64,000 nt of DNA. It comes from a candidate division WOR-3 bacterium. GTDB taxonomy: Bacteria > Hydrothermota > Hydrothermia > UBA1063 > CAJXJZ01. How positions within the stretch are numbered: the stretch's first letter is position 1; every line of letters begins with the position of its first letter. The DNA is taken from contig JALVYB010000051.1 in the NCBI GenBank assembly GCA_027038175.1, forward strand, positions 28,021 to 92,020. Reading direction: 5' to 3'. The position numbers were made by a program, and so were the translations under genes. Below the pieces are notes generated by a model. It was not told where the DNA came from and made no database searches. It was given only the letters and a program-made list of their open reading frames with translations. Shown here piece by piece: positions 5,901 to 10,664 of the stretch.

Positions 5901-7205
5901 ATGAAGGTAACTATTATTGGTCTTGGATATGTTGGAATTACGACAGCAGCAGGACTTTCAGAAATAGGACATGATGTAGTGGGCTATGATATAGACTCTT
6001 CAAAAGTTAAAACATTGAAAAAAGGTACATCACCTATATTTGAACCAGGGCTCGACGAACTTTTAAAAAACAACATTCAAAGAAAACGTCTGGATTTCAC
6101 CACATCTGCTGAAGAAGCAATACATCATGGAGATATAATTTTTATTTGTACTGGAACACCATCAAGGGAAGACGGAAGTGCTGACCTTACACAGGTGGAG
6201 GGTGCGGCAAAAACTGTAGCAAAATACATAAATGGGTATAAACTTATTGTGGAGAAATCAACAGTACCTGTGAAAACCGCCCAATGGATTGAGAGAACAA
6301 TGAAACTTTACCTTAAGAAAAAGGTAGATTTCGAAGTCGCTTCCAACCCTGAATTTTTAAAAGAAGGAGACGCAATACGTGATTTTCTCAAACCAGATAG
6401 AATCGTCATAGGAGTGGGCTCAAAAAGGGCAGAGAGACTTCTAAGGGAATTATATAAACCCATAAAAGCCCCCATTGTGGTGACAGATATAAACACAGCA
6501 GAGATTATAAAGCATGCTTCAAACGCCTTTCTGGCTATGAAAATCTCATTTATCAACATGATCTCAGATCTCTGTGAGGCCACAGGAGCAGATGTGGAAC
6601 TTGTTGCAAAAGCAATGGGTATGGATAAACGCATAGGCAAACAGTTTCTGAGGGCCGGGATAGGTTACGGAGGTTCATGTTTCCCAAAGGATGTAAAAGC
6701 GTTGTATTACGTGGGGAAGCAATATGGGCTTAATTTTGAACTTCTGAAAAATGTCCACGAAATTAATGAGTCAAGAATAGATGTTTTAATGGAACATCTT
6801 AAAAACGCGCTCTGGAATTTAAAGGATAAAAATATTGTTATCTGGGGACTTTCTTTTAAGCCAAATACTGATGACATAAGAGAAGCTCCAAGCCTCAAGG
6901 TAGTAAAACGCATTTTGGATGAAGGTGGGAAACTTACACTTTATGACCCTGTGGCAATGGATAATATGAAGAAGGTATACCCGGAAAACCATCCATACAT
7001 AGTCTATGCCAGGGATATGTACGACGCTGTGAAGGATAAAGAAGCACTGGTCATTCTTACAGAATGGGATGTTTTCAAACAGGCAGACCTTCAGAAAGTA
7101 AAAGAACTCATGCTAACTCCTATAATAGTGGATGGAAGAAATATCTACAAACCACGCAAAGTGCGCAGAATGGGATTTGAATACTATCCGATGGGAAGGC
7201 CATAA
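5901..7205 (+). CDS. ugd: UDP-glucose 6-dehydrogenase
   Basis: 434 aa. N-terminal Rossmann MKVTIIGLGYVGITTA. Catalytic Cys in GGSCFPKD. Nucleotide-sugar dehydrogenase family. Confidence 0.85.
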   Translation: MKVTIIGLGYVGITTAAGLSEIGHDVVGYDIDSSKVKTLKKGTSPIFEPGLDELLKNNIQRKRLDFTTSAEEAIHHGDIIFICTGTPSREDGSADLTQVEGAAKTVAKYINGYKLIVEKSTVPVKTAQWIERTMKLYLKKKVDFEVASNPEFLKEGDAIRDFLKPDRIVIGVGSKRAERLLRELYKPIKAPIVVTDINTAEIIKHASNAFLAMKISFINMISDLCEATGADVELVAKAMGMDKRIGKQFLRAGIGYGGSCFPKDVKALYYVGKQYGLNFELLKNVHEINESRIDVLMEHLKNALWNLKDKNIVIWGLSFKPNTDDIREAPSLKVVKRILDEGGKLTLYDPVAMDNMKKVYPENHPYIVYARDMYDAVKDKEALVILTEWDVFKQADLQKVKELMLTPIIVDGRNIYKPRKVRRMGFEYYPMGRP

Positions 7206-8143
7206 TGCCAAAAGTTTTAATTACAGGTGTTGCTGGATTTATAGGTTCGCATCTTGCGGATAGGTTTTTAAAAGAAGGGTATGGAGTTATTGGTATAGAT
7301 AACTTTCTCACAGGAAGAGTTGATAACATAAAGCATTTAAGAAACAATCCATCTTTCGTCTTTATTGAAAATGACCTTGGAAGGGAACAGGCATTCGACT
7401 TTAAAGCCGATATTATCCTGAATTTTGCATCACCTGCTTCACCTGTGGATTATTTTAAATATCCTATTGAAACTATGAGGGTAAATGCGTTTGGTGCATT
7501 AAACATGCTAAAACTGGCAAGAAAAAACAATGCTGTTTTTGTTCAGGCTTCAACTTCGGAAGTATATGGAGACCCTGAAATCCACCCACAAACTGAAGAT
7601 TACGTTGGACATGTAAATCCCATAGGACCGAGAAGTGTATATGACGAGGCAAAAAGATTTGCCGAGGCCCTTTCCATGTCCTTCTTCCGCGAATTTAACA
7701 CAAAAGTTCGAATAATAAGGATATTCAACACATATGGTCCAAGAATGAAGAGCAATGATGGCAGAGTCATTCCCAATTTCATTACACAGGCACTTTCAAA
7801 TAAACCTATAACCATTTATGGAACAGGGAAACAAACCCGCAGTTACTGCTACGTGGACGACCTTGTAGAAGGGATTTTCAGGGTAGCCACATTGGATGGT
7901 ATTGACGGAGAAGTATTTAATCTTGGAAACCCTGAAGAGTATACGATTCTGGAAACGGCTGAAATTATAAAAGAAATAATAGGTTCAAACTCAGAATTAA
8001 AATTCCTCCCGGCTCTGCAGGATGATCCAAAAAGACGGTGTCCTGATATAACAAAGAGCAAAGAAATTTTAGGCTGGGAACCCAGGATACCCTTTAGAGA
8101 GGGATTAATTAAGACAATAGAGTATTTTAAGAAAAATGGGTAG
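7205..8143 (+). CDS. uxs: UDP-glucuronate decarboxylase (UDP-xylose synthase), SDR family
   Basis: 312 aa. VLITGVAGFIGSHLADRFL..GYGVIGIDNFLTGR...FVFIENDL. YDEAK is the SDR YxxxK motif. Closely resembles the UXS/ArnA-decarboxylase-domain family. Start overlaps the ugd stop (ATAATG). Confidence 0.8.
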   Translation: MPKVLITGVAGFIGSHLADRFLKEGYGVIGIDNFLTGRVDNIKHLRNNPSFVFIENDLGREQAFDFKADIILNFASPASPVDYFKYPIETMRVNAFGALNMLKLARKNNAVFVQASTSEVYGDPEIHPQTEDYVGHVNPIGPRSVYDEAKRFAEALSMSFFREFNTKVRIIRIFNTYGPRMKSNDGRVIPNFITQALSNKPITIYGTGKQTRSYCYVDDLVEGIFRVATLDGIDGEVFNLGNPEEYTILETAEIIKEIIGSNSELKFLPALQDDPKRRCPDITKSKEILGWEPRIPFREGLIKTIEYFKKNG

Positions 8144-9202: not shown

Positions 9203-10664
9203 GAAACCCAATAAACTGAGGAATTATCTTAAAACGCTTCTTTATATACTTGTTATCCTGACTCCTGCCCTTTCCTATTTTATATTTATACTACACAAAA
9301 CACATTTTCCAATGCTTGATACTGACGGCTACAACTACATATGGTTCTGGAATGTGCTTGCAAGCGGGAAGATACTTCCCATGCAAACAACTGTTCCAAA
9401 ACCACTTATGGTTTTCTTCTATGGCATGCTTGCCACACCTGGATTGCACATTATAGAAGCACTTAAACTTTTGATTATAACTGCCACGGGATATGGAATT
9501 TTTAAACTCTCATACAGGTTAACTGAAGACTATACTCTATCTTATCTTGCAGAGATTATCGTGTTTTTACTGCCCATGACCCTGCAAAACATGGGTCTGG
9601 GAAACAGCACCTTCATGGTGGCACCTTTTTTAATCTGGGCTGTGTACATGTATATAGAAGAGCGGTACTATCTTGCTGCTTTTCTTTTACTTATCGGTGG
9701 TCTTATCCGTCCTGATGCGTGGGGAATTTCCATCCTTTTAATTCTACATTATCTTATTGCAGAACATAAGTTTAATTTTGCACTTCTTATAGGTATTATC
9801 GCTCCTTTTTTGTGGATGACCTTTGATTTTTTCCTGACAAAAGACCCCTTCTATTCCTTTAAAGTAATGAAATACTACATGACTATTTCTGGCTTTCAGG
9901 TACTCAAGGCTTCCATGCTACCTGCAAAATGGAAAGAGGCATCTCTCCATTTTATTGGAACTTACGGCAGTATTCTTCTTGTACTTGCCTTTTTATTCAG
10001 CTTTTTAAAAAGGAAAAGAGAAACCTTACTCATTTCGTTTGTAGCCCTCACGCTCTTTGCACAACTTACAGTTTCTGTTCTGAGAGGTGGGCTTTTTATG
10101 GACAGATTTGCCTATATAACAGGTATTATGCTCCTTATGCTTGTGCCATTTTTCTTAAAGAGTATATTCTCATTCACCTTTGAATGGATTGCTCCGTTTG
10201 TACTTGCTGTGTCAGCAATCTTTATTTTCTTAGGACTAAAACCCATGCTATATAATGTTCAGAACATTTTTATGAGTGAAAAGCTCAAACAGGAAACGTG
10301 CAGGGAAATGGCACCACAGGTTAGCGTAATTGATGATAAAAGAGTACTCATGCCTGCAAGAAGAATAGGGATGTTCGCCTTTCTCAATCACAAAGCCTAT
10401 ACTGACAATATTATTGATGAAAGAAGATTTGTTGCAAATAATTTGCGTCTCTCTGACATAGATTATATAGTGTTTATATTTAGAGACTTTGTTGGCAGGG
10501 CATCTTATATATTTTCTCCGTTATATCAAAAAGACCTCTTAAAAACGGGAAATATAGTTATACAAAAACTCTATACCACGCCAAATGGTTTTGGAAAGAT
10601 TTTCAAGGTTTTCGTTTTAGCAGAAACACTACAAGACCAAAAAGCCCAAGAACAATCTCCGTAA
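9192..10664 (+). CDS. polytopic membrane protein, putative GT-C-type glycosyltransferase (ArnT/PMT-like)
   Basis: 490 aa with more than 10 predicted TM helices. An acidic motif (LDTDGY) sits in the first extracytoplasmic loop. The final third is soluble. Operon position is immediately after the ArnC-like GT2. Confidence 0.45.
   Translation: MPGKKPNKLRNYLKTLLYILVILTPALSYFIFILHKTHFPMLDTDGYNYIWFWNVLASGKILPMQTTVPKPLMVFFYGMLATPGLHIIEALKLLIITATGYGIFKLSYRLTEDYTLSYLAEIIVFLLPMTLQNMGLGNSTFMVAPFLIWAVYMYIEERYYLAAFLLLIGGLIRPDAWGISILLILHYLIAEHKFNFALLIGIIAPFLWMTFDFFLTKDPFYSFKVMKYYMTISGFQVLKASMLPAKWKEASLHFIGTYGSILLVLAFLFSFLKRKRETLLISFVALTLFAQLTVSVLRGGLFMDRFAYITGIMLLMLVPFFLKSIFSFTFEWIAPFVLAVSAIFIFLGLKPMLYNVQNIFMSEKLKQETCREMAPQVSVIDDKRVLMPARRIGMFAFLNHKAYTDNIIDERRFVANNLRLSDIDYIVFIFRDFVGRASYIFSPLYQKDLLKTGNIVIQKLYTTPNGFGKIFKVFVLAETLQDQKAQEQSP

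Follow-up and report, generated by a model that had tools for sequence, protein, structure and literature searches.

In a 64,000-nucleotide stretch of contig JALVYB010000051.1 (positions 28,021 to 92,020 of the forward strand; assembly GCA_027038175.1), from a candidate division WOR-3 bacterium and referred to below as the window, we identified five overlapping genes that probably form a co-translated cassette for extracytoplasmic glycosylation, acting through a monosaccharide linked to a lipid phosphate. The five open reading frames (ORFs) lie on the forward strand (positions 5901 to 10664) and encode a UDP-glucose 6-dehydrogenase (ugd), a UDP-xylose synthase (uxs; UXS), a small membrane protein of the small multidrug resistance (SMR) superfamily, a family 2 glycosyltransferase (GT2), and a 490-residue membrane protein with a predicted GT-C fold. 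We hold the general mechanism, in which a GT2, a flippase, and a GT-C transferase act together, with good confidence. That the transferred sugar is D-xylose is a somewhat better than even proposition, and the argument for it is drawn from the logic of the operon.

The proposed pathway would begin with UDP-glucose, which Ugd would oxidize to UDP-glucuronate (UDP-GlcA) and which UXS would then carry to UDP-alpha-D-xylose by decarboxylation. At the cytoplasmic face, the GT2, which lacks transmembrane (TM) helices, would transfer the xylose to a polyprenyl (probably undecaprenyl) phosphate, giving polyprenyl-P-beta-D-xylose. Flipping of the lipid-linked xylose to the outer leaflet would fall to the ArnE/F-like SMR protein, which probably works as a homo-oligomer, and the 490-residue GT-C protein would then move the sugar to an acceptor on the periplasmic side: lipopolysaccharide/lipid A, another glycan, peptidoglycan, or a protein. 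Since ugd and uxs immediately precede the genes for the flippase and the GT2, UDP-xylose would be the end product of the soluble half of the pathway, and the five-gene cassette includes no aminotransferase, formyltransferase, or epimerase. We infer, as parts of this scheme, the use of UDP-xylose by the GT2, the role of the SMR protein as flippase, the anomeric outcome, and the acceptor.

A first-pass annotation, made from the letters of the sequence, had described five tightly coupled ORFs of these families, and our coordinates, family matches, and junctions (overlaps of 1, 8, 4, and 11 nt, in gene order) agree with it. The ugd product matched the N-terminal (UDPG_MGDP_dh_N), central, and C domains of its Pfam family (E values of 4e-67 to 2e-33) and the NCBIfam model for nucleotide-sugar dehydrogenases, TIGR03026 (480 bits; cutoff, 190). 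Its closest relatives in the PDB were UDP-glucose dehydrogenases (401 bits), followed by GDP-mannose dehydrogenase (220 bits) and UDP-ManNAcA dehydrogenase (174 bits).

The uxs product is of the same length as human UXS1 (4gll, 2b69) and 52% identical to it over 308 columns (357 bits). The next solved family scored 164 bits, which sets the ceiling for any epimerase or dehydratase, and ArnA scored about 112 bits; against the ArnA model NF005998, the score was 120 bits (cutoff, 777). The active site of UXS consists of Thr118, Ser119, Glu120, Tyr147, Lys151, and Arg277, of which the Glu and the Arg are invariant across UXS enzymes, whereas UDP-GlcA 4-epimerases carry Ser and Thr instead (PMC3438964). 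All six residues are present in the uxs product at the aligned positions (T117, S118, E119, Y146, K150, and R278), and the STSE, YDE, and DDPKRR motifs that bear them also occur in the orthologues of two related loci, L001 and L014, the latter encoding a UXS 69% identical to that of the window. Because of this active-site signature and the closest similarity to human UXS1, the uxs product is assigned from its sequence as a UXS-type decarboxylase, neither an epimerase nor an ArnA-type enzyme, which upholds the earlier description of a bona fide UXS. A UDP-GlcA 4-epimerase, as in the Rhizobium-type lipid-P-GalA system, was considered and ruled out by the Glu119/Arg278 signature and the similarity scores.

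The SMR protein matched Pfam Multi_Drug_Res (30.7 bits; cutoff, 23.7) and EamA (29.1 bits; cutoff, 28.2), and its similarity to EmrE was weak (E value of 0.2). It aligned end to end with the NCBIfam model for ArnF (residues 11 to 118 of 119), with a score of 60.3 bits that is below the cutoff of 99, and it scored 32.5 bits against ArnE (cutoff, 92). On these profile scores, the protein is classed as a relative of ArnE and ArnF but not an equivalog, encoded by one gene rather than a pair.

The GT2 matched Pfam Glycos_transf_2 (137 bits). Its top NCBIfam models were AglJ, PgfS, ArnC, a Dol-P-hexose transferase, and PpgS, each under the equivalog cutoff; for the ArnC model NF007986 the score was 72 bits (cutoff, 529), with the homology confined to the catalytic domain. 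Residues 1 to 212 aligned with the catalytic domains of Pyrococcus dolichol-phosphate-mannose (Dol-P-Man) synthase (E value of 2e-20), ArnC (3e-16), and GtrB (3e-13), which are, to our knowledge, the three solved polyprenyl-phosphate GT2 enzymes, and a DXD motif is present (D88-A-D90). We looked for a hydrophobic segment or TM helix in the 236-residue sequence and found none; the basic, aromatic-rich C-terminal stretch could lie on the membrane surface. Homologues with 50 to 62% identity number in the thousands and occur in many phyla. At one of these loci (L016, 7001-9288), the gene for a GT2 homologue with 62% identity overlaps a downstream gene, whose product is a 547-residue protein without a Pfam match. 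This protein was rejected as a GT-C homologue, having no similarity to the 490-residue protein, and may be a further uncatalogued partner of this GT2 family.

The 490-residue protein had no match in Pfam, in NCBIfam, or among PDB sequences, and a 57-sequence profile of its family likewise matched nothing in the PDB. Homologues were limited to six among 5.8 billion clustered proteins. When 1.84 billion representatives were searched exhaustively with a profile, 133 relatives emerged at an E value of ≤1e-3, only two of them at ≤1e-30. An AlphaFold2 (AF2) model built with 7 sequences was mediocre (pLDDT, 66.9); with 87 distant relatives added (94 sequences), the model reached a pLDDT of 94.2 and a pTM of 0.91. 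It comprises 11 long helices and, after them, a C-terminal domain of alpha/beta type, with the polytopic membrane fold of GT-C enzymes such as PMT, ArnT, ALG, STT3, and Emb. A Foldseek search with this model gave 16 matches at an E value of ≤1e-3, every one a GT-C enzyme, with active transferases at the top and no WaaL, Wzy, or RodA-type protein among them, and the fold was agreed on by two models and two methods. In addition, weak PMT_2 matches in 6 of 57 distant relatives (best E value, 5e-6), with two more relatives carrying PMT/PMT_2 plus TPR domains, provide a sequence link between the family and the GT-C clan. The first-pass annotation had called the protein GT-C-like and had pointed to GT83 or GT39 as possible homes: the GT-C part stands by fold, the profile part does not, and the alternative that it had allowed, an O-antigen ligase or polymerase, runs counter to the fold matches. 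Compared with the PMT/ArnT/ALG/STT3 class (GT39, GT83, GT22, and GT66), the protein shows 7 to 16% sequence identity and has motifs of its own. From the modeled fold, we regard the family as a distant branch of the GT-C superfamily that has yet to be catalogued.

Residue conservation, scored over the 94 sequences, was highest at R173 (100%), D/E175 (100% acidic), W208 (99%), W177 (98%), R305 (97%), D212 (95%), P71 (94%), and K70 (K, H, or R in 91%), with D218 acidic in 75%. Three motifs mark the family: the first external loop (EL1) carries TPKPL, the segment joining TM5 to TM6 carries L-x-R-P-[ED]-x-W, and P-x-x-W-x-x-F-D-x(4)-G-D-x-x-Y-S lies where TM7 ends. Across the family, the N terminus and loops 156-160 and 190-195 are rich in Lys and Arg, so these segments are predicted to be cytoplasmic; this positive-inside topology puts the conserved charged residues from D45 to D218 on the periplasmic side and leaves R305 unplaced. 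The pattern is the one expected of a GT-C active site, in which basic residues would bind the lipid phosphate and acidic residues would serve catalysis. The fold class and the adjacent GT2 together suggest a polyprenyl-phosphate-linked sugar as the donor. A GT-C-folded protein need not be a glycosyltransferase, since it could be a noncatalytic scaffold or lipid-binding subunit, like PIG-U/GAB1 of the GPI transamidase, or act on an unrelated substrate. We consider this distinctly improbable here: the top fold matches are active transferases, the Arg and acidic positions that never vary, on the periplasmic side, are like the residues with which GT-C enzymes bind phosphate and carry out catalysis, and in every cassette the GT2 and GT-C genes overlap.

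Related loci were found in several other genomes, and the named hosts in the genome scan were metagenome-assembled genomes of candidate division WOR-3, now Caldifarciminota. The order ugd-uxs-SMR-GT2-GT-C is complete at L003, L001, L005, and L014, where the GT-C proteins are 73%, 50%, 46%, and 36% identical to that of the window, respectively (E value of 1e-95 at L014). L018, a short contig that begins inside uxs, matches this order from uxs to the GT-C gene, four genes in all (GT-C identity, 46%). Linkage of the GT2, the flippase candidate, and the GT-C was thus kept in six loci, and junction overlaps were kept in L001, L005, and L014, those at L014 being of 4 nt. The same order and overlapping junctions in every related locus with enough flank indicate that the ordered five-gene arrangement is beyond chance. 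Scans of genome and metagenome collections gave no loci beyond those already found, and the cassette is, as far as public data show, confined to a thermophilic candidate phylum. No uxs or GT2 gene was found near the distant GT-C relatives P0008, P0009, and P0013, which indicates that only the close family has the cassette.

The flanks of these loci bear on whether the five genes are mere neighbors that a small clade has inherited vertically as a block and that make up no single pathway. All examples come from WOR-3 or close relatives, and the downstream genes for UPF0104, NUDIX, and OTCase proteins are equally syntenic in four genomes (the window, L001, L003, and L005), so that L001, L003, and L005 alone do not prove functional linkage. 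At L014, however, the cassette lies intact between genes for a Por_Secre_tail protein and PmbA/TldD, both flanks being unlike those of the window, with no UPF0104 gene and with the GT-C at its most divergent; its presence in this unrelated neighborhood indicates that the five-gene cassette is the unit. Together with the overlapping junctions and with the fact that the five functions make up a complete, ordered pathway with known analogues, this leaves the neighbors-only explanation a very slim chance. The upstream flanks also differ, an aconitase-family gene on the opposite strand in the window and purine genes plus mnmA in L001 and L005. The convergent UPF0104 (LPG_synthase_TM) gene, which had previously been cited as support for an envelope-lipid context, loses that role: it lies on the opposite strand, is syntenic only alongside the NUDIX and OTCase housekeeping genes, and is absent at L014, and we rejected it as a part of the system.

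Several observations weigh against parts of the proposed scheme. The sugar specificity of Dpm1/GtrB-type GT2 enzymes is not readable from sequence, and homologues of this GT2 with 53 to 62% identity lie in varied contexts without uxs, so the GT2 family overall is not xylose specific. In five such contexts that were sampled, the gene was found once by a PMT_2 GT-C, once in an ABC-transporter glycan cluster behind two short-chain dehydrogenase/reductase (SDR) genes, once beside an unrelated membrane protein, and twice without nearby glycosylation genes. The catalytic acidic residue that is canonical for EL1 of GT-C enzymes would correspond here to D45, located 8 residues past TM1; of 87 superfamily members, 53 (61%) have an acidic residue in that column, but it is not invariant (P0005 has Ser at this position), and D/E175 and D212 are better conserved. 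All examples of the cassette are from one candidate phylum and much of the synteny could be vertical, with only L014 breaking it. Finally, the literature that could be searched, which included few subscription journals and is therefore weak evidence, contained no report of a polyprenyl-P-xylose donor in bacteria.

One alternative is a three-component system in which the lipid-linked sugar is not xylose but glucuronate, a hexose, or an N-acetylhexosamine (HexNAc), with UXS feeding cytoplasmic xylosyltransferases encoded elsewhere. Besides the GT2 homologues in varied glycan clusters that lack uxs, the top NCBIfam similarities are to hexose and HexNAc transferases (AglJ, the Dol-P-hexose transferase, and PpgS), and lipid-P-uronic acid donors are known, such as dodecaprenyl-phosphate-galacturonate (Dod-P-GalA) of Rhizobium. 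However, uxs lies between ugd and the flippase gene, with overlaps, in every cassette covering that region, L014 included. Were glucuronate the donor sugar, the GT2 would have a competitor for UDP-GlcA in a decarboxylase translated together with it, and a hexose donor would require neither ugd nor uxs. We regard a sugar other than a pentose as unlikely, though a serious contender. It is also conceivable that another enzyme acts on UDP-xylose before the sugar is loaded, for instance a 4-epimerase that makes UDP-L-arabinose and whose gene lies elsewhere, in which case the lipid-linked pentose would be arabinose. Bacterial UDP-xylose 4-epimerases exist (Uxe of Sinorhizobium), and the Arn sugar, 4-amino-4-deoxy-L-arabinose (L-Ara4N), has the arabino configuration; none of the six cassettes includes an epimerase, though, nor was there a second SDR among the window ORFs scanned, and we give this variant little credence.

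With D-xylose as the preferred sugar, the cassette can be compared with the Arn pathway, whose logic the first-pass annotation had seen mirrored here. The logic is indeed shared, yet no component passes a curated Arn-family threshold. The Arn decarboxylase, ArnA, releases a UDP-4-keto-pentose, whereas the cassette encodes a complete UXS, which would reduce the 4-keto intermediate. The ArnB aminotransferase and the ArnA formyltransferase, correctly noted as missing, and also the ArnD deformylase match none of the five ORFs and none in the cassettes at L001 or L014. Arn attaches a cationic sugar, Ara4N, whereas xylose would be neutral; it has an ArnE/ArnF pair in place of a single SMR gene; its ArnC carries C-terminal TM helices, which the cassette GT2 lacks; and its ArnT belongs to GT83/Pfam PMT_2, to which the cassette GT-C has no sequence match. 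Judged by sequence, the cassette follows Arn logic but is not an Arn operon, because all Arn equivalog models score far below cutoff, the modification enzymes are missing, and UXS replaces ArnA. The sole Formyl_trans_N ORF of the window (61556-62128; 190 residues) is 51 kb from the cassette.

The cassette also resembles the GtrA/GtrB/GtrC, CsbB/GtcA/YfhO, and pentofuranose systems, which likewise encode a polyprenyl-P glycosyltransferase, a small flippase, and a GT-C together and which decorate envelope glycans with single sugars on the extracytoplasmic side; here the corresponding set is the Dpm1/GtrB-type GT2, the small multi-TM flippase candidate, and the GT-C. In contrast to these three-component systems, it has its own nucleotide-sugar supply (ugd and uxs), its flippase candidate is SMR/ArnEF-like and not GtrA-like, and its GT-C is of no described family. 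The pentofuranose systems begin from phosphoribosyl pyrophosphate, not from a UDP-sugar (PMC11127046). Known bacterial UXS enzymes, such as those of Sinorhizobium and Bacteroides, feed cytoplasmic glycosyltransferases. Within the same searchable literature, no report was found of UXS coupled to an ArnC/GtrB-type GT2, a flippase, and a GT-C, and for uncatalogued GT-C families, only the pentofuranose and PimE papers surfaced.

Taken jointly, these observations raise the tentative proposal, to which we give a little less than an even chance, that the cassette is the first bacterial polyprenyl-P-D-xylose pathway, that the 490-residue protein founds a new GT-C family xylosylating an envelope component of WOR-3/Caldifarciminota, and that the system is a charge-neutral counterpart of the Arn modification of lipid A. 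Although the logic is familiar, the system would bring a new donor sugar and a new enzyme family. If the proposal is true, the set of extracytoplasmic lipid-linked donors (Glc, Man, GlcNAc, GalN, GalA, Ara4N, Araf, and Ribf) would gain a neutral pentopyranose derived from UDP-xylose, and a GT-C family unrecognized by profile databases would be defined, with about 130 distant relatives in 1.8 billion representative proteins. The proposal also offers a first concrete hypothesis on the envelope chemistry of this uncultured, reverse-gyrase-bearing candidate phylum. Moreover, the cassette is compact and self-sufficient from UDP-glucose, which makes heterologous expression feasible, and it could serve glycoengineering.

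Features of the cassette and its immediate surroundings (positions in the window)
Feature	Position	Strand	Remarks
Candidate sigma-70-like promoter, TTGTCC-17-TATAAT	5770-5798	+	Consensus match only, 10/12 positions
tRNA-Pro(CGG) gene	5808-5884	+	Ends 16 nt before ugd start codon
ugd, UDP-glucose 6-dehydrogenase (UDP-Glc to UDP-GlcA)	5901-7205	+	434 aa
uxs, UDP-glucuronate decarboxylase/UDP-xylose synthase	7205-8143	+	312 aa; start overlaps ugd stop by 1 nt
SMR-superfamily 4-TM protein, ArnE/ArnF-like, candidate flippase	8136-8495	+	119 aa; overlaps of 8 nt (uxs) and 4 nt (GT2 gene)
GT2, Dpm1/ArnC/GtrB type, TM-less	8492-9202	+	236 aa
GT-C-fold membrane protein with periplasmic C-terminal domain, candidate sugar transferase	9192-10664	+	490 aa; overlaps GT2 gene by 11 nt
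LPG_synthase_TM (UPF0104) ORF, convergent	10603-11322	-	239 aa; Pfam match; overlaps 3' end of GT-C gene by 62 nt

The candidate promoter, upstream of the tRNA-Pro gene and ugd, is the best forward-strand match in the divergent intergenic region. The same tRNA gene was also present directly 5' of ugd at L001 (6619-6693), L003 (3414-3490), and L005 (6609-6684) and not at L014, and the tRNA may be co-transcribed with the operon. At the other end, the convergent overlap between the UPF0104 and GT-C genes was kept in L001, L003, and L005. The UPF0104 ORF of the window is short, its Pfam match beginning only at model position 54 of 302.

Elsewhere in the window, a reverse gyrase gene (43297-46776, reverse strand; zf_Rg, DEAD helicase, Toprim, and Topoisom_bac domains) indicates that the organism is a thermophile or hyperthermophile. 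A homologue of the periplasmic chaperone SurA (58363-59628, reverse strand) with two PPIase domains makes an outer membrane with beta-barrel proteins likely; no lipid A genes were seen in the scanned parts of the window. About 43 kb from the cassette, a second GT2 gene (53411-54310, forward strand) overlaps a gene for a Bac_transf phosphoglycosyl transferase (54277-55662, forward strand), and this separate, glycan-initiating pair could make a glycan for the GT-C to decorate. The forward strand also encodes two predicted proteases of very large size, one with Peptidase_C11 (clostripain) and CARDB domains (25444-29415) and one with a Peptidase_C25 (gingipain-like) domain and a C-terminal FlgD_ig domain (32909-36670). 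Four ORFs had no Pfam match at an E value of ≤1e-4 or 1e-5: 31502-32725 (forward; 407 residues), 50251-52746 (reverse; 831 residues), 59625-60434 (reverse; 269 residues), and 60544-61521 (reverse; 325 residues). The region is flanked by two reverse-strand ORFs of about 1,080 to 1,100 residues (1207-4443 and 16839-20138), which look like paralogous STAND-type signaling proteins; in L001, the ORF corresponding to the second has GGDEF, AAA_16, and TPR domains.

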